DNA of 64,000 nucleotides from Blasia pusilla (taxonomy: Eukaryota). How positions within the stretch are numbered: the first letter of the stretch is position 1; each line of letters begins with the position of its first letter. Location of the stretch: assembly GCA_050084515.1 (NCBI GenBank), contig CM114271.1, forward strand, positions 4,030,001 through 4,094,000, written 5' to 3'. Shown one piece after another: positions 1,899 to 59,297 of the stretch. The notes below the pieces were generated by a model. It was given only the letters and a program-made list of their open reading frames with translations. It did no database searches and had not been told where the DNA came from. The position numbers were made by a program, and so were the translations under genes.

Positions 1899-3226
1899 CG
1901 CCTCTTCCTTCTCCCAACGCCAGCAGATGTTCAGCGTTCTCCACCAAAATCCTCACGACGCCTGTGTCCACTGGATCGATAACCTCAAAAACTGGGTAGT
2001 TCGTCCGATCGTAACACCGGCCCTCCTCACTGCCAAATGTCAATTCCAACAGCAAGGCCAAACTGAGATACAATGAATGACCACCGATGCTCTCGACCCT
2101 AAGAAAGGGTTCAAGATGCGGCAGAAGCACATCTCCACGCCCAAAACTCATCACCATCTACACCAAAATCAACTCCCGAGCTCCTGACAATGCCAATGCG
2201 TTCAATTCCAGACACCCAACGCACACTCGGCGCATGTCCGCAGTCCGCACCGAGAACTGTGCGTCGAGCGCAGCGACAATCCACAACCGTATCGACGAGA
2301 ATCACTTACATACCTCGAGACTCGGCCAATGATTTGTCTCCTGCCTGTACCGCCTCGCCCTCTTCAGTCTCCCCTCCCTAGAAACGGCAACACTCAGCCT
2401 GAGATCATGAGCCCCGGTTGTCACCGAAGCACATTATTTATCCCCAATGAGTGTACGGACTCTCACATAGCTCTAGCCTCTTGTGAATCTGACGCGTGCT
2501 GATCGCGACTTGTTCATTCATTCGCGACTCCTTCGCAAGTTCGCAGAGAGGGAGTGGGCTGGGCAAATAGCACCGCACCTAGTCTCCACGTCGTCGCCTA
2601 TAAATGGCCCTGAACGTGCAGCTCAGCGACTCAACCGGTCCCCGCAGCCGATCATAGTCAACGGCCCCCCCCCTTCCAAAAGTCCCGCAGCAGTGTTGAA
2701 CTGCTCGACCGGCTCCATCGGTCATAGACATTCACCGGATCCCATTCAAACTCCTTTGCTAGTGTGATCCCTCCTTGTACTTTGATATCCTCGACCATGG
2801 CTATCATCTATACTATTAAGAGAGAAGTGGTTTTCACAAGGCGATAAGAGAGTCCCTTTAATCCAAAATGTATGGCATAGGCATTCAGGTAAGGGGGCAT
2901 TCAAGTAACGGACGGGACGGATGTTAGGGACCATGGAGTGGGCCAGGGCGTATAGGGCTAGGCACCGTGGAGGGGACTGTCCATCGCACGGCCCCTTCAC
3001 GGGTCCTAACTAGTATGGTTAAAAGGAACAAGTATGCGGCCCCCTTGTTTGAAGACCCCCGAGTGGGGGTTTAAGATGTAAAATACTCTTCCGAGAAAAG
3101 AGTCATTTTCCCATAGCAGGCTGGACTTTGGTAGAGTGCAGCATGGGTGAATTGCTTACATTGTTGTTTATGGAAATAATCAAGCATAGGTAGCATAGGG
3201 GTGAAGCAATGAAAAATATATTAAAT

Positions 3227-3540
3227 TGTGGAATTATTGATATCTTTTTATGTTGATCCTCAGTGGAAAAAAGAGACAATTGCTTGCAAAAGAAGATGTC
3301 ATTGATGTCGTGCGCATACACATCGCTACACAACCCACATCACTGGTCACATCTACATACCACACGCCACCGATCTTCCCTAACATACGGGATCGGTGTC
3401 GTGTGGTATGTAGATATGACCAGCGATGTGGGTTGTGTAGCGATGTGTATGCACATGACATCAATGACATCTTCTTTTGCAAGCAATTATCTCTTTTTTC
3501 CACTGAGGATCAACATAAGAAGATATCAACAAATTCCACA
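3227..3540. repeat. Long near-perfect inverted repeat (foldback), arms ~150 bp, loop ~15 bp
   Basis: 3227-3375 is the reverse complement of 3391-3540 with scattered mismatches; near-identical ORFs 3234..3503(-) and 3263..3598(+) reflect this. Confidence 0.95.
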
Positions 3541-4128
3541 TATAAATGAAACATACTCACGCATATACACTGGGACCCCACAACTAAATCAAAAGTAGTA
3601 AAAATGGCTCACCCGGCCTAAAACTCCACTCATGAATCTACATCGGCATATCGAACCACATCCATCCTCTACTATGAGGGAATCCGGACGCTAGCACCCT
3701 AACTCCTACACATCCACACACGTCTATGCAAGAGAGGCGTTCCTAAGACTCAACATGAGAAAGATGGTTTGAGAAAGCCATCTCTTTCACTCTTATACCC
3801 TTGGGAAGAGCCAAAAGGCTCTTCCCCCAAAAATAGCCCTACCAAGGGTAACCTACATGCACACGTTACCCCGTGACTGTTGACTTGATCAATAGGTCAC
3901 TTGCCGGACTAAAACCAAAATAGGAAAATCGTGATAAACGACGTTCCCGACACAACAGACTTAATATTTCATCCGACATCTTGGGACGAAGTTATACCCG
4001 AACAACCCGTTGACTCTCTATGCCGTCGACACGATAGAACTCTACCTACGTCAAAATAAGATGTGACATTGAGTAGAACGATGTCGGATAGTAAAATCAC
4101 CCAGTGTGTAAACTCCTCTCTCATTAAG

Positions 4129-5268
4129 TGTTAGAAAGAGTTTTATTAGTATTAAGTAAATTAGCTTATGAAAAGGAAATTCCCATGTTTAAACCTCTTT
4201 ATGATGCCTCTTTTATGCCGGCCCAACTTTAGGAAAAGAGGTAATAGATAAAAGATGGGATTAAAAAATTAAAGTAGTGGGATTGGTGCTTTAATGAAAG
4301 AAAAGCAAAAGTAGTCTTAGTTGATGGCTAGGGTAGATGGGGTAGTTTGGAAGATATGAAGTGATTAAAGGAGGATATTTTGGAAGAGATAAAAGGTAAT
4401 CTACTTGTGTCAAAATCTGATTGGTTAAGCTTTGAGAGGAAGCCATGCGGCACACGATAAGATTAGCCTTATTTCGTACTCTTGTGGATCCCTTGTGAGT
4501 GTATAAAGAGGAGGGACCTTCAAGGGTTCATCACCTTCTACTTCACATCTTGAGTTTCTAGTTTCACTCTTGAGTGGACGGCTTGGGATTGCTTGCTCTT
4601 CCAATGAGATTGGATTATCCCTCTTGGAAGAGTAACTAGACCATGGTCTAGTCTTCGATAGGATTCTAGTGTGTGGTATGTGTGGAGATGAGAGACTTGT
4701 CACCTTAGGGGAAGTTTAGTCATACTAGAAATAGTGGATGGTTTGGATTGTTATTTTCCCAATGAGAGTGGATTATCCTTCTTGGGAGAGCAACTTCACC
4801 AAACCCCATTCTAGAGGAGAGTAGAGGATGTTTGTTAAGTATGGATAGGGATGGAGCACGAGTTGTGCCAAATTTTCCTTTCCTTAACCTGTACCACGTC
4901 AAGATTCTCTTTGTAGATAGACACTGGTTCACTCGCTATCTAGTTCATCACTTTGGGGAGACGTTCATGAACCAAGTCATGCAATCTCCAACTCCGGTGA
5001 TTCTTCCTGTAGTCACATACGGAAGAACATAGGATTATATTTTTTATGTCCTTATATATCAATCCATGGATGTCAATAGGCCTGTTCGAGTAGGGTTTAA
5101 CACAAGTTGCGCTATTTTTCTTGTGTACAAATGTAAAGTAGTTTACAAGGACTTCATAGTAAGGAATTTCGGGATTTCATGTTATGAAAAAGTGATCGCC
5201 TCGGCACTACCATTCGTGATTCCTGTCGTGAGAGAATGGAGGGTTTATATAATAATTTTGTACTGACA
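4129..5268 (+). mobile_element. Probable solo LTR of a Ty3/Gypsy family, containing an internal ORF
   Basis: Starts TGTTAG, ends CTGACA, TATA-like TATAAA at ~4502; homologous to the LTR at 5388-6304. No convincing TSD seen. Confidence 0.6.
4841..5266 (+). pseudogene. LTR-embedded ORF of unknown function, 141 codons, one internal TAG (copy 1)
   Basis: ATG 4841 to TGA 5264-5266 in one frame; only stop is TAG at 5030-5032, which is TGG in copy 2. Confidence 0.7.
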
Positions 5269-5870
5269 AAAGGAAAACTTCTTATAGAGTTCGACTTTCA
5301 TCAACCACGTCTGTTGCAGCTAGAAGGTCCGCCCTTACTCGAAGAAAGACTCTCGACACGACAACGAAGGAGTGTGTAATTATCCTTTGTTAGTGGTTAT
5401 TAAGTTAGAGTCTATAACATAAAGCACATAAGTGGGAAAGAACCAGCCAAAAAGAGAAGATAAAGAACATAAGATAAAGATGAAAAGTAAGATTAGGATG
5501 AGGTTGGGGATAGATGTGGTAAGATGAGATATAGGAATATTAGAGTCAAAAGAAGATCATCTCATGCTATAAGAATATGACACATGGTATAAGGATGGGA
5601 AAATCTAATTTGTCTTCACTGTACCTATCTCTAAGGATATAAAGAAAGAGAAGAGGCCTCGAGGGGCATTGTACCTTTGATCGAGCAACTCTAGAATGGT
5701 CTTATGAGATTGAGAGTTGGAATGGTTACCATTCCAACTAGAGTGGATTATCCCTCTTGGAAGAATAACCAAGTAATAATACATTGTTAAGAGTTAGATA
5801 GGCTTATTAGAGGCTGACAATGGCTATTGAGCTGTAAGTAGAGTAAGGGGGCAGGGCTGTTCTACAGATA

Positions 5871-6304
5871 ATGGATGGAGGGGGAGCGAGAGTGACTCAT
5901 AATTTTCCATTTCTAAACCGATTTACCATCAAACTTTTATATGTAGATAGACATTGGTTCACGAGATATCTCATATATCGCTTTGGCAAAGTTTTCATGA
6001 CATAAGTGATGGAGTCTCTCTTCCCGATGATTCTCCCAATTGTTACATATGATCATGTGTGGGATTGCACTATTTCTATATTTTTTTAAACGGGATATGG
6101 GGAATAGATTTGAATAGGCCCCTACGAGTGTCTTTTAACACTCGATGTATTATCAATCTGGTTTGTTAACCCAAGGTAGCATATAGAGAGTTTATGGTGA
6201 GGAAGTGTGATCAAGAGTATTATTATGAAGATATTGCATCGACATTGCCTTTTATAATCCCTATTGTGCGAAATTGGCAAGTGCATATCTTGACCTTTTA
6301 TTTA
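5871..6304 (+). pseudogene. LTR-embedded ORF, copy 2 (premature stops and one frameshift)
   Basis: MDGGGARVTHNFPFLN...VDRHWFTRYL...LPFIIPIVRNWQVHILTFY aligns end to end with copy 1. Confidence 0.7.
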
Positions 6305-6463
6305 AGTGGTAGTAAAGAGTCAAGGGAAAGTCGGAGTGACCATGGAAGAAACTTTGAGGGATATGATTAATGACTTGATTCATGAATTGAGAGAGTTGAG
6401 AATTGCTGTTGATCAAAGTCAAGACCAAGTCCAAGAATTAACTCAAGAAGTTGATCCTGTCAG

Positions 6464-6467
<4 letters not shown>

Positions 6468-6528
<61 letters not shown>
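6468..6528 (+). repeat. (GA)30 microsatellite inside gag
   Basis: Pure GA run. Confidence 0.97.
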
Positions 6529-6531
<3 letters not shown>

Positions 6532-9481
6532 CCGACGGATGGGATGGAGATGGAAACCATGAGTACCTTGACTTCTGGGGAGAGTGAGGAAACCTTAAGG
6601 GCACGAGCATTAGAGGCCCAAGTAGCATAAAGAGTGATAGAGATAAATACCCAAACGTCATTGATATTGAAAATAACAAAGGCATGCAAGGTAGAACCAT
6701 ACAATGGAAGTCAAGTCATGGGGGTATTAGAGGGTTGGATCATTCATATAAAAATCCATTTATCCCTTTTTAACATCGATGATCATATTGCAGGAATGTT
6801 TGTAAGATCTTGATTGACAGATCAAGATCTTACCATGGTATCAAGGATGAGCGAGATCCTTGATTGAAAATTAGTCAACAAATCACATGGAGCGGAATGA
6901 AGCAAGGGCTACAGTAGCCCTTATTTATGTGGATCCCATCCTTACTGCTACAATGAAATTATGACGATTAGAGCAGAAAGGTAGTGTGGAGGACTACATC
7001 GAGGAGTTTCGTGACTTATAGATACAAATCCGTGACATGAATGGGGCAGAAGCCCTCGATCTATTCAAGAGAGGTTTGAAGAGGAAGGTGGATCAAGAAG
7101 TGATTCGAGATAACCCAAAGGATATCAATGAAGCAATTGTATGTGCCCGAAGAATAGCAAATCTATATGAAGGAGGAGGAGAGGTGGTTGCTTCCAAGAA
7201 AAATCACTATGGACCCACACCCATAGAGTTGGGTAACCTTCAGGCAGGAGACAGTTATGTACCATGAAGGTTAAATGGAAGGGTGCCAATTGAGAGGGAT
7301 CGAAACCCAAAAAATACAAGGGATTGCTCCTCGAACCGACGGGCCGGGGGTTCCTAGAGGAGGGAGATAATTTGAAGTTGGAAGAGATACACGCCAATGA
7401 TTTGAGTGTGATAGATATGGTCATATAGCCATAAATTTTTGCTTTCGTATGGGGCCATATCATCGCCCTCTTAATCATCTTGAAGGGGGACACACGCATG
7501 AAGATGACGAAGAAGATGGATCTCAGGGAAACTCTGATCATAAATAATCTCGCCTCGTGGATATACTAGTTCTACCAAAAGGAGAAAAGACGAGGATCAA
7601 CACAAATATGTGGAGGTAAATGGTTTAAAGAGAGGAGAAACTCATCTGATCATCATAGATATGGAAGTAGAAGGGTCCCAAGTTAGAGTGTTGATTGATA
7701 CTGATGCAACAGAAAACTTCCTTTCAAGAGCCATAACTATGAAATTGGGCTTAGGTTTAGAGAGGGATCAAAATGAAGAGGTAGAATTTCCAAACAAACA
7801 AACTGAAAGGATTGATAAGCTTCTTCTGAGGATAGGAAAGTATCTTGAAGAGTTGGAGTTGAAGGTCATTCGAATATCCCGTTATGATGTTATCTTGGGG
7901 ATGCCTTGGTTAGAACAATACAATCCAAAGATAGATTGGAGAAAAAAGATTCTGAAGAAGCTTTATGGAGATAGAGTTAGATCACGTCCTAAAATCCTAC
8001 GCCTATATGTAATAGGAAAAACTGCCATCAAACATCAAGATATATGCTTCCTTGGTTTAATAAGAGATGTTGGTAGTTTGAAAAAAAACATAAGAGTTCA
8101 GAGAAGTATTGGAGGAATATAAAGATGTATTCCCAAAAGACTTATCATCACGGCTACCACCCAAACTCATGGTAGGCCATAAGATTGATGTCATTCTAGG
8201 AAGCACACCACCATAAGGCTCCTTACGGCATGAGGCCAAGGGAATTAGAAGAATGTAAGGCCTAAGTGGACAAGATGCTGCAGAAAGACTTCATCCAACC
8301 AAACGTCTTGCCATATGGAGTCCCTATTCTTTTCGTGAAAAAGAAGGAGGGAAGCATGTGACTATGTATTCGAGTATGGAGCACTCAACCAACAAACAAT
8401 AAAGAACAAATATCCATTACCAAGAATGAACGATTTGTTTGACGAGCTACAAGGAGCAAAATACTTCACCAAACTCGATTCGAGAAGCGGCTACAACCAA
8501 ATTTAAATTATCGACGAACTCAAGACTGCTTTTCGTATTAGGTATGGACACTTTGAGTATTAAGTCATGCCATTTGGTCTTACCAATGCAACTACAACTT
8601 TTATGTGCTTAATGAATGATATCTTTCGTCCATATCTAGATAAGTTTGTCATCATATTCTTAGATGATATCTTGGTCTATAGTAAAATTATAGTGGATCA
8701 TAGAAATGATTTACAAGGAGTCCTTCATATCCTACAAGATAACGAGTTGTATGCTAAGCTTCAAAATGTGAATTCAACAAGATAGAAGTTGATTATATAG
8801 GGCACCGAGTAAGCGTAGAAGGCATTCAAGTGATGAATGAGAAGGTAGAAATGATCAAAAAATGGAATGCAGTAGAGGATCAAACTCAATTCAAGAGTTT
8901 TTTAGGATTAACAAGATTCTATCGAAGATTTTCCAAAGTTTTTGCTTGAATCGTATAATCCTTGACAATTTTAGTAGGAAAAGGAAAAAAGTGGAATTGG
9001 GGTAAATCATAAAAGATCTTTGAAATGGTATGATCCTACTTGACCTATAAAGTTGTCCACAGATGCATCAGGTACTACCATTGGAGCAAATTTACTACAA
9101 GAATAGGATGATGGATGATATTTTATTGCCTTCTTTTCTCGCAAGTTGTTGCCAGCGGAACAAAACTACCATACAACTAAGCCAGAAGAACTTGCTATTG
9201 TATTGGGAACAAATCATTAGAAACACTATTTGGGCGATAAAGAGTTTGTGGTGAGATTGATCACAAGCCTTTGGTATACTTAGAGTCCCAAAAGGAGCTC
9301 TCCAAATATCAAATTTGACGGGCAAAATGACAACAATAGTTCACCATGAAAACTATCTACATAGAAGGAAATAAGTAGTCGGCAGCAAATCCCAATATGT
9401 CAAAAATGTTGGGAAGAAGATCCATAGATCTCACTATGGATCTTGTTTGTGAGTTACCATGTACAATCACAGGACATGACT

Positions 9482-9659
9482 CTAAACAAATACATGGAAG
9501 GAAGAACATAAGGGAGAAATTAACACGAGGGAGTAATTGGGGAGTAACATAAGAAATGAGATTTTGTATGGGGGCCACCTAAGCAAATACATGGAAGGAA
9601 GAACATAAGGGAGAAATTAACACGAGGGAGTAATTGGGGATTAACATAAGAAATGAGAT
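9482..9659. repeat. Direct duplication of ~80 bp, period 97 bp
   Basis: CAAATACATGGAAGGAAGAACATAAGGGAGAAATTAACACGAGG... occurs twice, at the truncation point of the Gypsy element. Confidence 0.9.
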
Positions 9660-15777: not shown

Positions 15778-18700
15778 CCACCCCCAAACGGTTGAAAATT
15801 GCCGCGCAACGAATTCTTCTACCTTCAGACAAACACTCGAAATTCAGAGTTCCTGGCTTCATTAAAGGAGTAAAGAGAAACGGAAGGTCCACTTGTTTCT
15901 CCTTTTTGTCAGCTGCTCCTAGACTCCTGTCCTAGACTCGTAGCCACTTTCCATTTTCTAACGAATCGTTGACGCGGTGCCGTGATAGACTAGGTTGCTA
16001 CGTTTCTTCAGATGGTTGCCAATGTTTCTCCCAAACGCTACATGGTCTCAACTTCTCAAGCACGTCGTACGAAAAAGAAAAAATAAATAAAATAAAACTT
16101 TCTTACTGTTTTAAAATCTGGTGTTTCTTGTCATTATGTTTCTCATACAAGACAACGAGAACAATATAAAAGGATGGCCCTTTCTCGAGGTATCTTTCTC
16201 GGATTTCTCCCATGGGAGAGTACTCTCCCATGAGGGAGCGATGAATGAGTGAATGAATGAAGAGGAGGGACGGCTGGAAAAAACGCATAACTCGGTAGGA
16301 GACAAAGTAGTCCAAAAACATAAAAGAATTAAAAAATAACTTTAGGTCCGAGTCACATAAAAGAATCCATGTTCCAAAGATTTTGGGAGTTGCGATTTTT
16401 TACCGGTTCCGCTTTTTCCCTTCTTATTTTTTTATCAATCAAAAATAGATATCTAAGTCATCATGATCATGGACTTTTGTGAGTTCTTTTTTCGTATTTT
16501 TCTACCTCCCAAAATATTTGTAAAGCATCAGCTAGTGTTAGCTTCAAAGAATTATAACTCATCTTTGCTTAGAGCCGAGAGAATTTCTAGTGTATATCGG
16601 GATGAGACTATAAGAACTCTAAGACTATGGGTGCACCTTTCTCTATCATCTTGCCATTGGATCCCCTAAAGTTTTTCTCCATCCTTCTCATAGTAGACTC
16701 TATGACCATAGCTTTATCTCCAAAGTTTTCATACCCTTGAATCACCCTTGGAAAAGTTAAGGTTTTTAAATTTTGATCCCAAAACTTTTTTTGGAGAATA
16801 TTTTGGAATCACGTCTCTCACAATAGATCAACGAGATCTAGTGGAGCACATTCGAGGATACTAGAGGAAACCCTCACGAGATTGAGGATGACCTACTGTG
16901 GCCACAGATAGCATGAGAGAGTTGGTTTCCCCTTGGTTTCGGTTCATTTGGAACCATATTGAGTAACTTACTATTTCGAGTAAGTTACTATTTTGAGCAT
17001 AATTGACTTAAAGTTTCTACTTTTGGAAATGGCCCTTGACCTCTTACAGTCGGTTGAGACCAAAGAGATGATCTGGGAACATAGTTTACCGTGGAGAGAC
17101 GTTGAGAACTCATTCTCTCTTCGTTGAACCTCTTTGCATAAGGCGGAGGAGTTATGCTCCTCCTTGCCTTGTGTGTGTGACCCAACCTTCTCATTAGGAG
17201 AGTGGGTTTGGTTTTAAGAGAGGGAGAGTCATTGATTGATTGATTGATTTGTGTGCATCGTGGAGAGATTATGTGAGAAGCACTTGATTTATTTGAGACA
17301 TTTTGGTATTTATCCTCTCCATGTTTGGATGCCATGAGTTAGCATAGGATCGTGTGTGCTTGTGTGTATGTTCGGTGACAGTGATGTATGTTGTGTAGCG
17401 ATGTGTATGCGCACAACATCGTCCAACTCATTGTAATCTTATGTGGTGTATTTTATGCCATATGTTTTCAAATTCTTCTTTTTTTTCCTCCCTTTGTCTT
17501 ACTTACAAAATTAACTTTCTAGGGAGATAAAAGCACTACTATTATACTAACCTCCTTTTACTCTGCAAAATTTCAGATTATGCCTATTCCCAAATAGATA
17601 TAATTGGGGCTAGCTCAGATCCATTTCATTCCATATCCGAGAAGACTCGGGGTATATGTTGAGCCAATGTTAGGGGAGAAGTGGGTTGCATGCGGATCAA
17701 TCATCGGAACAAAATTACGCAAGTTCTGATTTTTATTTGTATCTAAATAGTCGATCGGAATGAGAAAATTTTCAAAATGTACTAAAAAAATACCTAGGCC
17801 CGATTTCAGCAATGCAACTCTGTCCGAGGGTGGCTTAGCCCTGGCCATTAGACTAGACCCATGGGATAAGGCAAAAAACACCAACAACTAGGAAAATCTA
17901 TGCCCCCCCCCCCCCTTAGCATCTCCGAAACCCGGATCTACTAGGTAGGGGAGGAAGTCCATCCTTTTCTATTTGACATCCATAGGCTTTAAATAAAATC
18001 TTGCCTTCGATTGAATATAATTCATTTCCGAGTTCCCACATGGATTTGCAAACGGGGGCGACTGCGTCAATATTTGCATCATTACTCTTCCAAACATCAT
18101 TTGTGTGGTAAAGAACGTCACAACCCATCAGCATTTCAAGCACCTCTTAAAACGATATATTCTTTTATTTATTCTAAGAGAAGTTCATGCTCTCCGAGCG
18201 ACGAAAATAATGTTCCGGCACTGTCCTACGGGTTTCATACGATCTGAGTTGTGGGACAAACGTCCCCAACACTCAAAGAATAGATCCTTCTAAACGCATT
18301 AGACTAATTTTTGTTGATTTCAAACGTCGGAAACGGAAGTTAAGTTCGCCGCTTCGTTGCCTGCAGCTACTAAGTAGGGGTTATCCGTAGGCACCTCAAA
18401 TTAGTTAATTTTTGATATTTGTTAATTTGATACCAAGACTATTCCTAGTTGCATCGGGCAATGAGAGAAAATTCTTTCCATTTAATAGTATTGTGGAGCT
18501 GTAAAATAGTTTCACACTTTTTATTTGGAATTTTATCATCTATTAAGAAAAAATTAGGAAACGAAAAATGGACATGAGAAAATCTATAGGTGGAAAAAAC
18601 TTATCACGTATCTTATGGTACAAAAATGGAAAGGAAGTTGGATTTGAAAAAGGAGGAAAATCCCAAAATAATTAACTTTTTATTTGAAACCATTTTTTTA

Positions 18701-36474: not shown

Positions 36475-37487
36475 TGTCGCGCCCCTACTCTCCTTGAACG
36501 TCAATCTTTAGTGTTGCGGAAGCGTGCGTTCACTAGGTCACGAACTCATCACGAACTCATCGCCGATCTGCACCCAAACACGCATTCTCGTTAGTCGGGT
36601 TTGGGCCAACCGGCGTTCCGACCCACCGAGTCCTCAACTCGGCGTCTCATCAAGCTCAACCTTCCTTAGTTCCTAGCTTCCAAAACATGGCAAGTCCTTC
36701 AAGACTTGGAACAGACTTCCTGGTTAGTCCAGGGATCTGAAACGGCCCTTGCGCGCCTAACGATCCCAACTGTTCAACGGTCCTCGGGTGAGTTCCGAAC
36801 CGAGACCCAAGTAATTGAGTCGCGGTGTGAATTCCAAGAGGGATGTCTAAAATCGCCTCAATGGACTTGGTGCAGGTTTTCCAACCCAACGCCCAAACTC
36901 GCGTTCCGTTCCATGCCCTTGAGCCGCCCCGCGGCGCCCAAAGTGGGGTTTGGGTTCCAAGCACTCTCGGAGACCTTCCCCCTTACTAGTACTTCTGGGG
37001 TTCTCCAATAACCCCTCCCCTTTGGGAAAAGAGGGTCGGGCCCTTCATTGTGGCCCTCAACCCGACTCCACTTATAGTCGTTTTTGGGTCGTATCTCGGC
37101 CGCTGCTTATGCGTTTGCAGCGATCTTTGGTGCGTTTGGACCGGCTCTCCATAAGCTTTCCAACGCACCCTTATTTGCTCCAAAAGCATCTCGGCGCTAA
37201 AAGTTATGGCCATAAATACAGTCGGAAACTCTCAAACGCTAGTGGCGTTCCAAATCCGGATCTTCCCTTTGGCAACCCACTTCCTAGACTCGACTTCTTC
37301 CAAGTTTCATTCCGCGTTTGGTCCAGGTTTCTCAGTCGCGACCATAACAACTGAAACGCGACTCCTCGTTCGCGTCTCGTCTCTTGTCTCCTCTTTGAGA
37401 CACTCCAACGCGCAAACCATCTTAACGTGACCCCGCTAATGTTCCGATGTTCCGCTTGGCACTTGTTTGGTCATGAGGGTCGCGACA
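36475..37487 (-). repeat. 3' LTR of the chromovirus
   Basis: TGTCGCG...CGCGACA; nearly identical to 42826-43838. Confidence 0.97.
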
Positions 37488-42825: not shown

Positions 42826-43838
42826 TGTCGCGCCCCTACTCTCCTTGAACGTCAATCTTTAGTGTTGCGGAAGCGTGCGTTCAGTAGGTCACGAACTCAT
42901 CACGAACTCATCGCCGATCTGCACCCAAACACGCATTCTCGTTAGTCGGGTTTGGGCCAACCGGCGTTCCGACCCACCGAGTCCTCAACTCGGCGTCTCA
43001 TCAAGCTCAACCTTCCTTAGTTCCTAGCTTCCAAAACATGGCAAGTCCTTCAAGACTTGGAACAGACTTCCTGGTTAGTCGGGATCACGAAACGGCCCCT
43101 TGCGCGCCTAGCGATCCCAACTGTTCAACGGTCCTCGGGTGAGTTCCGAACCGAGACCCAAGTAATTGAGTCGCGGTGTGAATTCCAAGAGGGATGTCTA
43201 AAATCGCCTCAATGGACTTGGTGCAGGTTTTCCAACCCAACGCCCAAACTCGCGTTCCGTTCCATGCCCTTGAGCCGCCCCGCGGCGCCCAAAGTGGGGT
43301 TTGGGTTCCAAGCACTCTCGGAGACCTTCCCCCTTACTAGTACTTCTGGGGTTCTCCAATAACCCCTCCCCTTTGGGAAAAGAGGGTCGGGCCCTTCATT
43401 GTGGCCCTCAACCCGACTCCACTTATAGTCGTTTTTGGGTCGTATCTCGGCCGCTGCTTATGCGTTTGCAGCGATCTTTGGTGCGTTTGGACCGGCTCTC
43501 CATAAGCTTTCCAACGCACCCTTATTTGCTCCAAAAGCATCTCGGCGCTAAAAGTTATGGCCATAAATACAGTCGGAAACTCTCAAACGCTAGTGGCGTT
43601 CCAAATCCGGATCTTCCCTTTGGCAACCCACTTCCTAGACTCGACTTCTTCCAAGTTTCATTCCGCGTTTGGTCCAGGTTTCTCAGTCGCGACCATAACA
43701 ACTGAAACGCGACTCCTCGTTCGCGTCTCGTCTCTTGTCTCCTCTTTGAGACACTCCAACGCACAAACCATCTCAGCGTGACCCCGCTAATGTTCCGATG
43801 TTCCGCTTGGCACTTGTTTGGTCATGAGGGTCGCGACA
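42826..43838 (-). repeat. 5' LTR of the chromovirus
   Basis: Adjacent to the tRNA-Met PBS; about 10 differences from the other LTR by eye. Confidence 0.97.
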
Positions 43839-48334: not shown

Positions 48335-48775
48335 ACGGGAGCAGAGCAGCAAGGCGGAGCGCAAGGCGGAGCGCAAGGCAGAGCAGCAAGGCGGAGGCAC
48401 AAGGCAGCAAGGCGGAGCAGCAAGGCGGAAGCACGAGCTCAGGAGCAGCAAGGAATCGCAATCCGCGGAGCAGCAAAGCAGAGCAGCCAGGCGGAGCAGC
48501 AAGGCGGAGGCGCAAGGCAGCAAGGCGGAGCAGAAAGGCGGAAGCACGAGCTCGGGAGCAGCAAGGAATCGCAATCCACGGAGCAGCAAAGCAGAGCAGC
48601 CAGGCGGAGCAGCAAGGCGGAGGCGCAAGGCAGCAAGGCGGAGGCGCAAGGCAGCAAGGCAGAGCAGCGAGCAGCGAGCTCGGGAGCAGAAAGCAGCGAG
48701 GCGCAAGGCACAGCAGCGAGGCGCGAGGTCGGGAGCGGAAAGCAGCGAGGCGCAAGGCACAGCAGCGAGGCGGAA
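48335..48775. repeat. Low-complexity tandem repeat block inside the hAT (GCAGCAAGGCGGAG-type units with higher-order duplication)
   Basis: Very T-poor plus strand; recurring units and a duplicated ~130-bp block containing CACGAGCTC...AAGGAATCGCAATCC. Confidence 0.9.
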
Positions 48776-49458
48776 CCGCGGAGCTCTGGACTTTGGAGTT
48801 GCACTCTCCAGGGAGGGAATGCGAATGAGGCCCCATGGGCCCGCAGCGGGGTCTCCACCGCACTGCGGGCCCCCAAGGGGTTCGAGACTCCTAGTTGGGA
48901 ACCGTCCGATCTGGATCGGACGGGTGTACTTCTTGTGCCCTAAGCCCTAAATGAGCGGACGGTCTAGATCGAGCCGTCTCCTCCTTATCAAATCGTGACC
49001 ACTCATAATTTTCCGGCAGCCGCAACTCCAGGCGGCCAAAAACCGTCCGCCGGTAATCGCACTCCAGCCACTAGCCGGTTTCCCTACCCGGACGGCTCAC
49101 TTTCCGACAACTTCCTGCCGGGAAACGGTCAAATTCCGGCGCCTGGTTGGCTCGCCTGCCACTTGCCGGTATGTACCGAATTTCACCCGGAACTGCTGCC
49201 GGGAAGTTCTTCTGATCGTCGGAATTTTTTAATTTCTGCCGGCCGGGGTTACTCGTAACCCCGGATCTCCCCGAACATTGCTCTAAACGTCCCAAGTCGA
49301 GCCATCGCTTCGCCGAGCGCAAATCGAGCTCGCCGGTAGAATTCGCAAACGGAGAAACGAACCAGTGCGCAGTGCCACTTCAAAAGACGCAACATTCATC
49401 TCGTGGACACCCGAAAGAATAGCCAGGAGCTGGTGGGACGGCCAGAGGATTCCTTCTC

Positions 49459-49935: not shown

Positions 49936-50034
49936 GAAGTGCATCATTTTCCCTATCTCGCATGCTCTTCGCTCATATGTCCTCACCCCCCTTGAATTAT
50001 TGGAGGTCCGGCCGTCCCACCAGCTCCTGCCCAT

Positions 50035-50466
50035 CGATTCGGGTGTCCACGTTAGTGGTGAAACCTCTTCGAATTCGGGTGCCAACGTAAGTAGGGAGAC
50101 GTCTAGGAATTCGGGTGTCAGCGTTATTAGTCAGACGTCTAAGAATTCTTGTGTCCAGACTAGTAGTGAGACGTCTAGGAACTCGGATGTCCACGCTACT
50201 GGTGAGACGTCTAAGAATTCGGAAGTAGACTTTGTTCGTGAGACGTCTGAGAATTCGGGTGTCCACGCTATTAGTGCAAGGTCTAAGAATTCGGGTGTTC
50301 ACGCTAATAGTGCAAGGTCTAGGAATTCGGGTGTCTACGCCACTAGTGAAACGTGTGGGAATTCGGAAGTCGACTTTCTCAGTGAGACGTCGAAGAATGC
50401 GGATGTCCATGCTGATAGTGAGACGTTCATGAATTCGGGTGTGAACGTTATTAGTGAGTCCGGGAG
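50035..50466. repeat. Minisatellite of 12 x 36 bp, approximate consensus GAATTCGGGTGTCCACGCTANTAGTGAGACGTCTAR
   Basis: GAATTC-like unit starts every 36 nt (50071, 50107, 50143 ... 50431) with no indels. Confidence 0.95.
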
Positions 50467-50722
50467 TCGACGTTCTCAGTGAGCATGCGTGTAGGATTTC
50501 CACGAATGCGAGCAGGAATTGGCAAGGAGATGGACGAGTGCGCGTGGCTGTAGTTGAAAGAAGGTGTGCAGACAGACTAGACTCAACGGCGTTTCGTCGC
50601 GAAGCATCGGGTGCTCACTTACCTGACTTACCTGACGTCGTCGGCTTCGTTCGCACGGATTCGTCCCACGCGAGCGAACCGGGAGCCGGTGATGTTGTTG
50701 TTGAGACGGAGTTGGTGACACC

Positions 50723-54428: not shown

Positions 54429-56974
54429 TATGTTCTTATTTACAAACACCTTTTTTTCTTGAGAAATCATCTTTTTTTATTGACAAATGGTAATAAGAAG
54501 AAAATCTTTTAGTAACATGGGCGACAAGAAAAGTTTTTGTAATTTTATTAATAATCATTTGTCTTGTTTAACATTAGTAGCACTGATGTACATCCCTACT
54601 ACACAATGCATGTAGTTAATAATTTTTAAACTAAAAATTTCTTGGTCTATGTGTTATAAAAAAATATTATCATGCAGCATAAGAGAGATACGTCCAAATC
54701 AAGACTCTACCTTCCCTTAACGATTTAGATCCTTTTAGTATCAATCATTGACAAAGATTATAGAGTTGAAATACACTTAAAAGCACACTTGTGGTATATG
54801 GGATTCCCAAATTATTTTCAACCATTTGCACCATTCTTGTGGAATGTAAGATTACATCTAAAGCCCACCTCATCATCATTTGAAACTAAAATTTCTTCTT
54901 GTACTTCCCTAGTCTTTCATAAATTAGTTCCTCATTCTAAATCCCATTCTAGACTACCATCTTTTCTTTGGAAAATTCTCCATCATGCCTCTTTGTTGTA
55001 GGAAAATAAATTTTGATTCACCTCATTTATAAAAGAAATCTCTCCCTTCTCCTTTAGACCCTCCTCTTCTTATTCCTTATTCCTGATTTATCCTTTCCAA
55101 TTCCGGCATGCTCATTTGAAGGGAAGGATGGGGGGACCCACCTTCCCTCCTTCACTAAGCCCCTCCTAAACAAATATGTGTGGGCACTACTTCTCTCCTT
55201 TCCTTCGTGTTATATTTCAAGTGTTGTTATCTTGCTTCTTAATTGTTTTCAAATGAACAATATTCCTCCATCTTCCTAAATCATTGCTCATTTTAAAATA
55301 CCACCTCGATCATGACCTCAAACTCTCCTCCACCATTTGGAAAACACCCTCAATCTCACCTCCTAATTAAAGTGATTTTTTTAAATTAAAAATTAAAAAA
55401 ATCACCCTCATTAAGGAAATATATATGATCGCTTGGCCTATATTACGCCCCCTTCCTAAACATAAATTCAATACCCCAACCCATACTCTCCCTCATTCAT
55501 GCGGAAAATATTTCATTCCACTTTTTCATTTAGTACGGAGAAATTCACTCCTTCCTATTTCAAAAAAAATTCAATTAGTTGGCTAAAGAGCAACCTTTCA
55601 ACTTAAGGAAGATTGAATCCCTTGAGGTCGAATTCTCAAGGTTGGACCATAATAATAAAATCAAAAGAAACCATCTTTTATTGTATGTAAAACTACAATG
55701 AGCCACATAGAGAGACAATGTCGTCCAATAGTAAGCAATTGTCAATGCAATACACGCGATTAATTAAAAAGTCTAGATAATTTTTATTTAACTTAAGATG
55801 GAATTGAATGAATTAACCTCTGAAATCAATTTTGAGCAATTCCATCGGTTGAGAGGGCAAGTGATCCGATAGGCCAAAAGGGATCAATATCAAGAAGAGA
55901 GGTATTGCAAAATGAAGAAAGGGCTCTCCAATAAAATTAAGAGATTAAAATATTTTTATTTATGAAGAAGTTCATACCATAGAATCTTTGGAGAATGTTT
56001 TTGTAAATAGAATTAATAAGATCACTTATCTTCCAACTTTTAGTTACCTAATCAACGACAAATAAGTACAATCATCTCCCAAGTCACTATTCTAAGGTCT
56101 ATGATCCTCTCATACCTTCAAACTCCTTTCATCTTAACACTTATTGGCAGCACTCTCGATCACTTACCTTTTGAGCCAATAGAATAGTTTGAAATTGATT
56201 TTAAATTATATTTCAAATTTTTGAGATTTAATTTATCATTTTGGAAGGTAATTTGAACATGTGGATTGCACCGACTCCGCTAGTAATATAGATTAGAGAT
56301 CATTTTCCAACATTATCTTTGTTTTAGTTGAAAAAGGAAATAAAGAGGACATTTGTAAACCAAATCATATATGTGAAAGAAGAATCATGTAGGTGTGGAG
56401 TGTTGAGGTTATGGTAATCCACAACCATCTTAGTTGGGCGACTATTTCTATGCACCATTTATTTGCATGCTTGCAACCATATATATGTCTATTTTAGATC
56501 AAAGGAATCTTTTGACATAGATTTGTCCCAAAATTTGATATGCCGATTTCGAGTCTTCAACAGAGTGTCCTAGATTTTCTTCATATACATTTTCCTCGCC
56601 GATTTTTTCTACCCATGCATCGAAATACTAACAAGTAATTTGGAAATTTTCATCCTACTCGTAGATCTAAGAAATCATTCACCTTACTCTCCCTTCCATT
56701 GTCATGCTCATTAAACAAGACTCCATTACCTTCATCACATTACTCTATGGACGACAAATCCCATCGTACATAACATCAACCACCTTTTCTTGAAGTATGT
56801 GACATTCTTTACCTTCTACACCACCTTTTTCTCTTACTCGAATCATTAAAAAAATAAACAAGTGAAATAATATAAGAAAGATCGTGCACATGTAGTACAT
56901 TGACAATGCGGTAGTAGTACATTGCACGTCCATGCGATGCATTGGGTGGATTTTTAAAACACCTCATTGTCTCT

Positions 56975-57416
56975 CCTAACCCATCCCATGGCCAACCCCT
57001 AACTTCCCTCCTCCTAACCCATCCCATTGCCATTCCCTAATATCTCCTCTCCTAACCCATCCCCTACTATCCCCCCCCCCTTCTAACCAATCCCCATGGC
57101 CAACCCCTAATGTCCCTCCTAACCCATCCCAATTGCCATCCCCTAATATCCCTCCTCCTAACCCATCCCCATCGTCACCCCCTAATATCCCCCCCTCCTA
57201 ACCCATCCCCATGGCCAACCCCTAATTTCCCTCCTCCTAACCCATCCCCATTGCCACCCCCTAATATCCCTCCCCTCCTAACCCATCCCCATTGCCACCC
57301 CCTAATATCCCCCCCTCCTAACCCATCCCCTAATATCCCTCCTCCTAACCCATCCCCATGGCCAACCCTTAATTTCCCTCCTCCTAACCCATCCCCATTG
57401 CCAACCCCTAATATCC
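56975..57416. repeat. C-rich minisatellite, ~39-bp unit CCTAACCCATCCCCATTGCCAACCCCTAATATCCCTCCT, about 11 copies
   Basis: Directly visible tandem array. Confidence 0.95.
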
Positions 57417-57493
57417 GTCAAGGAGCGTGCCGTACCTTCCACTCTTTGACCTGCAGAGAGCCAGAGCGGCAACAGCGAACTGGTGCGTGAAGA

Positions 57494-57890
57494 ACAGGTA
57501 GAGCTCGCGTCTCAGCATCCATCGTCCGTCTGCAGTTGCTGCTTGGACTGGGGCAGACAGGTAGAGCTTGCGTCTCAGCATCCGTCGTCAGTCTGCAGTT
57601 GCTGCTTGGACTGGATCTTTGGGAGGCACGGTCATGTGTGCAGAGCGGTAATCGGGCGGGGTCGCCGGGAGCGGGAAAGGGACGGGGCTGAATCTCGAGA
57701 GTGTTTCCCGGAGGCTTGAATTCATGATGCATTCCATTCGAAGCCAAAGAATCCTAAACGAATTTCTCCTCCAGTCCAGTTCGGACCATCTCTGGGATCC
57801 AGCGGCTTGAATTCATGATGCATTCCATTCGAAGCCAAAGAATCCTACACGAATTTCTCCTCCAGTACAGTTCGGACCATCTCTGGGATC
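57494..57890. repeat. Two recent local duplications (periods 63 bp and 91 bp)
   Basis: 57494-57551 vs 57557-57614, and 57713-57799 vs 57804-57890. Confidence 0.9.
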
Positions 57891-59297
57891 ACGCTCTTGG
57901 CAGAAGACGCCCAATCCTATGAACACCCGACGCAGCCGGGTGAGGATGGATGGATGGACTGCAAGAAAAGAAATTGGGAAGGTATGGAAGATACTAAGCC
58001 CTGCCAGCCGGCCAATCCGGCCCCGTCAGCTATGTCATGTCAACGACTGTTGTCAAGAGCCAAGCACAGTTTGGTGCGCTAGACCTTGAAGTGTGGAAAC
58101 AGAGCCCCAGCAATCCCAGACAGACTTCTCCTCCGTTACAATTTGAGTCATTCTTGGCAATCCGAAGTATCTTACCATACGAAGTTGACCGGTAAAGCTA
58201 CATCAATAACTATACTCGCGAGGCGTGCAGAATCGAGTTTCACATACTGAGCCTTTCAGTGTGTGCGTGTGTGTGTGAAGACGAAGAGATTGTAGATAAT
58301 TTAAGGCGAGGTATTTTCAGAGTTCTGCCCATGGCCGCGCTAGCGTATTCATTGGAAAGGGCAAAAAGCATCGCGAAGAGAACCGACGATAACTACCAAC
58401 GGTCAAAAGAATAAAGCGAATAGGATAGAATAACAGCTTGCGATCGAAAGGCTCCGTCGCGAGAGGGCTACGGGAGAAGGAAGATTTGAGAGTGAGGTTT
58501 GAGGTTCGAGGGAATATTGCCTGCAAAGCAAAGAATTCGCCTCTCGATTGCAGAAATTGTGACGATCCGGTAATGCGAGTAGTGCGAATTTCAAAGATGG
58601 AAGAATTTGCACATTTACTGCAAAGCACTCCCGTCGACGACCAGATGGCAGTGCGAGGACAATAAACGAAATGCTAACAAAAGGAAGACTCTCCGCCGAA
58701 AGTAGACAAAGTATCACCAAACGGCACAAGGAAGTACTGCGATTCTTCGCAATTTCGGCATATGAGGTGGTGACATGACTCACCTGAGTTTCGATACACA
58801 ATCCTGCCGGCTCGACGTCAGTTTTACAGGCCAAATGGACGATGCAGAGCACAACACTCCCGTCGAAGAAACGATGGCAGTGGGGGAAAAAAAAGAAAAA
58901 AGCAATGCAAGACGAGAAATGGCCTCCCACGACAGTAGGCAACAAGGTACCATCAAATGACGCACAGAAGTACAGAGATTCTTCGCAATTTCGCCATCGG
59001 GTGGTGATGACGCTCACCTGACTATCAATTCACGAGCTACAACCAAATGCCGCACACCAGTATGGAGATTCTTCGCAATTTCTACACCAGGTGGTGACAA
59101 TGCCCACCCGACAATGGATGATGTAATGCACAATTCTCCCTTTGGAGACGAGATGGCAGTGGGGAGACCATTATCAAAGAACATTCCTCAACTGACAACC
59201 TGATTCAGAGGCGTGGAGTGATAAAGCTACGATCACCATTTCCCTCCACGGGCTAAATGTCTACCTACAGAAGCGGGAATGAAGGAAATCGGGACTA

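Follow-up and report, generated by a model that had tools for sequence, protein, structure and literature searches.

Two small adjacent genes, here called ORFa and ORFb, were found together with a promoter core and a predicted RNA hairpin in two Ty3/Gypsy elements of Blasia pusilla, one a chromovirus and the other a non-chromovirus. The presence of the same module in both is the most striking point of the analysis, and was absent from the first-pass annotation of this DNA. The gene pair is real and apparently undescribed, being unusual in its size, its fold, its position in U5, and its sharing across lineages. No description of the protein family or of U5-encoded ORFs was found in the literature searched, which lay largely outside subscription papers.

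Anatomy of the gene pair in the two element families

The window analysed is a stretch of 64,000 nt (contig CM114271.1, positions 4,030,001 to 4,094,000). The features that concern us, all on the plus strand, are the following:

4082..5363, +, solo LTR of family A (Phygy-like non-chromovirus Ty3/Gypsy), 1282 bp, TGTCG...CGACA
4375..4550, +, promoter core of family A, TATA at 4502; approximate boundaries carried over from young copies
4593..4635, +, predicted bulged RNA hairpin of family A, first copy; -20.2 kcal/mol, z -4.4, 0/200 shuffles
4750..4794, +, predicted bulged RNA hairpin of family A, second copy; z -2.2, 5/200 shuffles
4841..5059, +, ORFa of family A, 72 aa if intact; here a stop at codon 64, terminal stop lost
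5066..5266, +, ORFb of family A, 66 aa, intact in this copy
5375..5721, +, 5' LTR of family B (chromovirus), decayed, end approximate; followed by a primer-site remnant
5724..5770, +, predicted bulged RNA hairpin of family B, just 3' of the primer site; z -2.9, 4/200 shuffles
5871..6089, +, ORFa of family B, outside the LTR, 72 aa if intact; here a premature stop at codon 45
6104..6304, +, ORFb of family B, 14 nt past the ORFa stop, 66 aa if intact; decayed here
6342..9484, +, gag-protease-RT-RNaseH of family B, decayed, truncated in the integrase region

The first-pass annotation had recognised two homologous coding stretches in the sense orientation, and their starts at ATG 4841 and ATG 5871 were verified; the protein motifs it quoted are present in the window, as is the upstream motif that it had seen three times (4599-4627, 4757-4785, and 5732-5760). 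Its boundaries had to be redrawn. The TGTTAG start and the "terminal TGACA" assigned to the first unit are both internal to the true LTR (4082-5363), which is bordered by the 4-bp target duplication ACGA (4078-4081 and 5364-5367), shares with its relatives a homologous span from ~4079 to 5366, and extends 97 bp beyond the ORFb stop. The second unit, taken for a single LTR, has an LTR of only ~350 bp, with the ORFs located 3' of the primer site and ending 38 nt ahead of the gag ATG at 6342. In this second copy ORFb has lost its start and its terminal stop and contains an internal stop, and no 3' LTR of the element was found in the window. We consider the overall anatomy, that is, two genes and their placement in both elements, to be very nearly certain.

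The single protein of 141 aa that had been proposed did not withstand the comparison of copies, since codon 73 is a stop in 27/29 family-A and 28/29 family-B copies. The same stop was found in 29/29 A copies from a protein search, 31/31 further A loci, and 8/9 copies of a second B set, these sets overlapping in a few loci and the set of 27/29 having been chosen by DNA search. A second ATG follows the stop (27/29 A and 28/29 B copies) after a spacer (A, 6 nt; B, 14 nt), so that in B the two genes lie in different frames. In both families ORFa encodes 72 aa and ORFb 66 aa, aligning without gaps, and copy 1 of the window looked like one long frame because the codon-73 stop was lost there. A search with the read-through protein as the query gave nothing. 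The ORFa and ORFb profiles align with each other (hhalign 98.7%, E 4e-16), and on this likeness the two genes are paralogues. Read-through or frameshifting at codon 73 could still yield one longer protein, in keeping with the common frame of both genes in A, where TAG with a following C, a leaky context, is the predominant stop, with the public homologue P0006, an a-b fusion that carries a and then b at the spacing of family A, and with the absence of the stop in 3 of the 150 best protein-search matches. However, the B genes are out of frame across their 14-nt gap with a further stop 27 nt downstream, each gene retains its own ATG in the copies just counted, TAA occupies codon 73 in 7/29 A copies, and the homologues are mostly single units; we thus regard a fused product as quite improbable.

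A DNA search of the genome of the window (390 Mb, 26 contigs) with copy 1 rendered 2440 candidates; scores were computed for 40 of them, and 30 were retrieved. Full-length elements were sought by fetching pairs of matches ~7.2-7.5 kb apart. All four full-length copies of family A (8474-8799 bp, LTR pairs 97.8-99.5% alike) contain gag, RT, RNase H, and integrase, and all four carry the ORFa-ORFb pair in both LTRs. The earlier claim of an ORF inside LTRs was thus borne out for family A but not for family B, whose genes lie outside the LTR. Because family A holds the pair in both LTRs, its solo LTRs carry it as well. After setting aside 10 loci not scored as A, 2 duplicates, and 17 truncated copies from the 99 loci classed, 70 whole LTRs were left: 50 were solo LTRs with a target duplication (perfect in 31, with a single mismatch in 19), 8 were attached to elements, and 12 had no duplication. 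CG was central in the duplication, on at least one side, in 50/50 of these solo LTRs and at 8/8 element-attached ends. An 18-nt primer site starting with TGG lies directly 3' of the 5' LTR in 4/4 copies, with no matching tRNA gene by pattern search; in Phygy, primer sites correspond to tRNA-Trp (81%) or tRNA-Thr (6%). A Pfam scan of the integrase C-terminal stretch of one copy (L094) gave no family, and hence no chromodomain. The 4-bp NCGN target duplication is common to family A and Phygy, and the length of family A falls inside the Phygy range (7656-9968 bp), both characters being tabulated in the accessible part of Neumann et al. 2019 (PMC6317226). Target duplication, length, and the absence of a chromodomain, rather than an RT tree, make family A a Phygy-like non-chromovirus. 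The accessible text of PMC6317226 does not mention coding capacity in Phygy LTRs, whereas those of family A carry ORFa and ORFb. Phygy has been noted in a liverwort (PMC12885004, in the part available), and the available part of PMC7466625 makes no mention of an ORF.

For its part, copy 2 rendered 312 candidates, 30 of which were fetched, and ten longer stretches of family B were taken for element structure. All ten showed the order LTR (~353 bp), primer site, hairpin, ORFa, ORFb, and gag. Both LTRs were visible in 8/10, none of these LTRs containing the ORFs, and in one element the LTR pair was identical (100%). A chromodomain (PF00385, E 4e-15) was found at the integrase C terminus of one copy (L099), and a 5-bp target duplication in 7/10 copies (two had no 3' LTR in the stretch, and one was unclear). 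The primer site, TGGTATCAGAGC or a one-base variant, was present in 10/10 copies and is presumably of the tRNA-Met type. No 9- to 13-nt complement of the post-LTR sequence was found within the LTR, whereas Tcn1 elements are 83% self-priming and 5% tRNA-Met; by its primer site, family B appears Galadriel-like. Copy 2, which had been read as the same type of element as copy 1, therefore belongs to a different Gypsy lineage, the chromoviruses. A young family-B element (L098, G000:C2:50513600-50523500) was also seen inserted in a family-A LTR at LTR position ~505-509, beside the first hairpin.

The module common to both lineages

The enzymes of families A and B are only distantly related (30% identity over 355 aa of RT-RNaseH, 22-27% for integrase), and the two gag proteins gave no match at E 10. 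Identity between the families is ~74% for ORFa and ~61% for ORFb. The promoter core, ~180 nt around the TATA box, aligned between A and B with a score of 85.5, against a mean of 28.9 and a maximum of 50.5 for shuffled sequences, and was equalled by 0/1000 shuffles. No homology was detected between the first 200-300 nt of the two LTRs, where 150/1000 shuffles reached the score.

In B the predicted hairpin lies next to the primer site; A has two copies of it. It folds in 6/6 copies (z -2.0 to -4.7), although one B copy does so in a different register, and the second family-A hairpin scores better in a young element (z -3.4, 0/200 shuffles) than in the window. Two pairs of the stem exchange U-G, C-G, and U-A and remain paired in 116 and 115 of 126 distinct copies, counts that are biased by the selection of copies with a motif pattern; the top pair is closed in only 38/126. 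An Rfam search rendered one match, at chance level.

The family tree, built on 73 columns and with many unresolved forks, groups the ORFa proteins of A and B on short branches, at a node left open with a single long-branch row. We infer that a module of ~1 kb comprising promoter, hairpin, and genes moved between the lineages in one old recombination event; adjacency alone would account for the joint movement of the three parts. No third carrier family was found in the genome among the best 150 matches of three divergent queries, the loci checked being A or B.

Selection, transcription, and protein family

The remark that many differences between the copies are synonymous proved accurate, since changes between A and B concentrate at third codon positions: in one intact pair, differences at the three positions numbered 17/11/43 for ORFa and 19/10/39 for ORFb, and the third-position excess was significant (Fisher p 7e-16 and 1e-9, respectively). 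In the other five frames pS did not exceed pN, save in the reverse frame with common third positions, where pS was 0.58/0.51 and pN 0.23/0.28 for ORFa/ORFb, with 3-4 stops. The comparison between families drew on distinct intact copies, numbering 36 from A and 19 from B in the case of ORFa and 41 from A and 23 from B in that of ORFb; it gave a pS of 0.69-0.79 and a pN of 0.20-0.28. The dN/dS between A and B was 0.13-0.14 where dS was unsaturated, far from the neutral value of 1, and between older and younger A sets it was 0.16-0.19. Values within families were higher (0.20-0.62), as is expected from decay after insertion, and this signal is weaker. Broken copies were excluded from the set and the younger A set was picked by protein score, a choice that lowers dN/dS within families but cannot produce the pattern between them. 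Purifying selection on ORFa and ORFb is thus shown at the level of codon comparisons, and the earlier reading holds insofar as these Gypsy elements carry an accessory coding region that is under selection and uncharacterised.

To assess transcription, 6-12% of each of three raw RNA runs from a single study, together with one contig set, was compared with window positions 4050-6460 at 80% likeness. The RNA comes from an organism in which the same families occur, possibly a close relative rather than this species, and the reference copies are decayed. About 2100-2500 reads were mapped per run. In most of them the first mate fell on the minus strand, the orientation expected of sense RNA under most stranded protocols. 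Strong sense transcription, the support looked for in RNA, was observed over both gene pairs in 3/3 runs: depths on the two strands were 36-156 versus 0.1-11 for the A genes, where reads of solo and element-attached LTRs are inseparable and pooled, and 77-180 versus 0-7 for the B genes.

In family B, depth was similar across ORFa, ORFb, and the start of gag. In family A, depth was high in U3, some reads reaching, in full-length elements, the preceding polypurine tract, fell to a minimum of 12-54 at 4455-4616, just past the TATA box, and rose again before the genes. Divergence does not explain this drop, since the reference is 88-91% like young copies there, and ORFa and ORFb are therefore placed in U5. 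With the genes in U5, their expression would come from the 5' LTR and from solo LTRs rather than from the 3' end of the RNA. Alternative splicing was considered and found unsupported: no forward joint was listed for the 6710 mapped reads of the three runs, a result whose sensitivity is limited by the decayed reference and by 130 loose-end rows outside the listing. Candidate sites do exist, the stops doubling as AG acceptors and a GT lying just 5' of ORFa in B, but in B the depth of ORFa equals that of ORFb. Reads joining the end of the LTR to its start (5364 to 4081) were also seen, numbering 1, 10, and 2 per run; some contain short insertions similar to pieces of the primer site. The joints look like those of two-LTR circles of family A, which would indicate ongoing reverse transcription in the samples.

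A profile search of 1.84 billion representatives rendered 59 proteins at E 0.001, and a second family search rendered 90 proteins among 148 candidates. Most public homologues (108/143) are 60-80 aa long, and they group into a-like proteins, b-like proteins, and a third subtype, with supports of 99/96 and 99/95 for the clades of ORFb and the third subtype. The third subtype was not found in this genome among the matches listed. Among 21 outside homologues looked up, the only one with a named organism was CAM6127331.1, from the liverwort Calypogeia fissa, a finding that together with the Phygy-like carrier suggests a bryophyte host, probably a liverwort. Searches of viral contigs and prokaryote genomes for the genomic surroundings of outside homologues gave no locus, and a metagenome scan gave two chance loci. 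In P0004 and P0033, of the third subtype, the domain is duplicated internally, so that tandem doubling happened more than once.

AlphaFold2 with 44 rows (pLDDT 88) predicted a beta-alpha-alpha-beta-beta fold, ORFb not being modeled separately, with a strand at residues 18-25, helices at 27-38 and 40-48, and strands at 53-60 and 64-71. At the start of helix 1 the residue is lysine in 89% of family members, and next come positions occupied by Q (81%) and R (59%); ORFa of families A and B has R in place of this K. Charge is modest (K+R 6 and D+E 5-6 in ORFa, K+R 7-9 and D+E 4-5 in ORFb; family median net +1). Searches for known relatives were negative. The four proteins matched no Pfam family at E 5, and 44 members gave 11 scattered single-member Pfam matches, none of them PF10536, PF04195, or PF03078. 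PHROGs and NCBIfam matched 0/44 members, PDB sequences gave no match, and the ESM Atlas gave no usable one. Foldseek with the predicted structure, the check proposed beforehand, found no match at E 0.001 in the PDB and viral sets, and the best VIA-align results were Z 4.0 for a first model and Z 3.5 (rmsd 3.8, 53 aligned) for a better one; the lack of a match to a predicted model in structure libraries does not prove a new fold. The beta-alpha-alpha part may resemble ribbon-helix-helix DNA-binding proteins, although none of these was among the listed structural matches of the monomer model at Z of at least 2. A complex of a and b predicted without alignments scored 0.01, which counts neither for nor against assembly.

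Possible roles and comparison with known systems

Our preferred reading, offered tentatively, is that a and b are oligomeric accessory regulators that would act on the promoter-hairpin module of their own element and raise its output of full-length RNA. Both genes precede gag at the 5' end of the sense RNA, and ORFb and gag would be reached through re-initiation or leaky scanning on unspliced RNA. Scanning would pass 4-7 upstream ATGs, as there are seven between the TATA box and ORFa in A and four in B; the translation of ORFa is therefore not assured. In a young A LTR (L091:780-1050) all seven are in one frame, which is not that of ORFa, and one of them lies in the bulge of each hairpin. In the predicted structure, the hydrophobic C-terminal pair of strands could mediate assembly of a and b, and the conserved residues with basic or amide side chains where helix 1 begins may contact the nucleic acid of the cis module; binding to promoter or hairpin would then boost full-length element RNA. 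On the other hand, the proteins are not strongly basic, and a hairpin beside the primer site resembles a packaging or dimerisation signal, which would need no accessory protein; in retroelements such signals are typically hairpins next to the primer site.

Alternatively, and as the main rival to this reading, the pair might act in counter-defence, binding a host silencing component of the small-RNA or methylation pathway and so shielding the carrier element, as the VANC anti-silencing proteins do for DNA transposons. Spread across lineages would follow from a benefit that does not depend on the enzymes of the element, the near-neutral charge would fit protein binding, and the wide divergence of the family an arms race; the carriers are young, with LTR pairs 97.8-99.5% alike in A and up to 100% in B, and their sense RNA is abundant. 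However, the searches showed no likeness to known suppressors, the selection observed is purifying, and the RNA abundance may come from the samples and not from suppression, so that we consider this role unlikely.

A function as particle or movement factors for cell-to-cell passage, after the fashion of sORF2 in the Drosophila MDG1 group, appears improbable. The layout is alike, since MDG1 elements carry two short ORFs 5' of gag, sORF1 and sORF2, with low dN/dS and unspliced RNA (bioRxiv 10.1101/2025.03.14.642691, in the part available), and the C-terminal half of our proteins is very hydrophobic. According to the same partial text, sORF2 is a myristoylated single-pass membrane fusogen, whereas ORFa and ORFb have neither a membrane helix nor the Gly-2 myristoylation motif MGxxxS/T, residue 2 being D in 4/4 proteins. 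Their maximum 19-residue hydropathy is 1.06-1.53, strands and not a membrane helix being predicted (by tools other than a dedicated membrane predictor); among homologues, 18/108 reach 1.6 and one 2.0. There is also no polybasic tail, as the protein ends at its last strand. The sORF1 protein is described there as a predicted nuclear helix-turn-helix protein, whereas ORFa and ORFb share one beta-alpha-alpha-beta-beta fold, and we claim no homology. That the ORFs act mainly as upstream ORFs tuning gag-pol translation, with a minor role for the peptide, is very improbable: they are the last ORFs ahead of gag in both families and the stop-to-start gaps are short (6 or 14 nt, and 38 nt to gag in B), but the strong amino-acid conservation with near-saturated synonymous sites, the confidently predicted fold, and the broad homologous family point to a working protein.

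The regulator and the shielding readings could be embraced by a wider one, possible but on balance doubtful, in which an undescribed bryophyte family with a new small fold would form part of a portable promoter-hairpin-protein cassette that drives or shields retrotransposon RNA, has moved between the two deepest Gypsy lineages, and, through its U5 position in one carrier, was left in a large excess of solo LTRs able to supply the proteins in trans long after the loss of gag-pol.

The arrangement is reminiscent of the retroviral pairs of accessory factor and RNA element Tat/TAR and Rev/RRE, in which a small element-encoded protein is likewise found beside a bulged 5' hairpin; here binding is only proposed, and ORFa and ORFb have no arginine-rich motif. 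The sag gene of MMTV is also encoded in an LTR, but in U3, whereas the family-A genes lie in U5.

Plant LTR retrotransposons are usually viewed as needing only gag and pol. Extra ORFs are nevertheless described for plant Ty3/Gypsy elements (eORF-5'F of Tekay, Ogre, and TatII) in the available part of Neumann et al. 2019 (PMC6317226), are placed in the internal region only in that of Vicient and Casacuberta 2020 (PMC7264820), and are heterogeneous even within a lineage according to the accessible text of both. Like them, ORFa and ORFb are conserved in most copies, in sense orientation, upstream of gag, and of unknown origin. They differ in their ~70 codons, in being paired paralogues, in their position in the LTR in one family, and in their occurrence across lineages. 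As far as the accessible text of PMC6317226 goes, that survey screened only extra ORFs of at least 250 codons and listed none for Phygy, Tcn1, or Galadriel, a threshold at which genes of 70 codons would escape. The promoter-plus-gene module found in both lineages counters the view, as given in the accessible parts of these surveys, of independently acquired extra ORFs. This accessory family is selected, transcribed, and predicted to fold well, has a candidate cis target, and sits in elements with near-identical LTRs. Solo LTRs become possible protein-coding loci, with 2440 candidates for family-A genes in 390 Mb, a figure that is not a copy count.

Several other features were observed in the window. 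Direct repeats 96% alike and 6351 nt apart (36475-36774 and 42826-43125), probably the LTRs of another element, are accompanied at matching offsets by a stop-to-stop frame of 143 codons at both ends (36923-37354 and 43274-43705), which the a/b profile does not match. An inverted repeat of 155 nt, 91% complementary with a 15-nt loop (3221-3545), is possibly a MITE or fold-back element, and a similar stretch of 42 nt is found again at 17379-17420 and in several loci. Purine-rich repeats of 113 nt and 49 nt with open frames on both strands occupy 48373-48950 and 50001-50494, with a 36-nt tandem array within long minus-strand frames, and GC-rich stretches at 56967-57889 and 58620-59182 contain short tandem families, with C-rich units of ~39 nt, units of 63 nt and 91 nt, and spaced units of ~230-280 nt.
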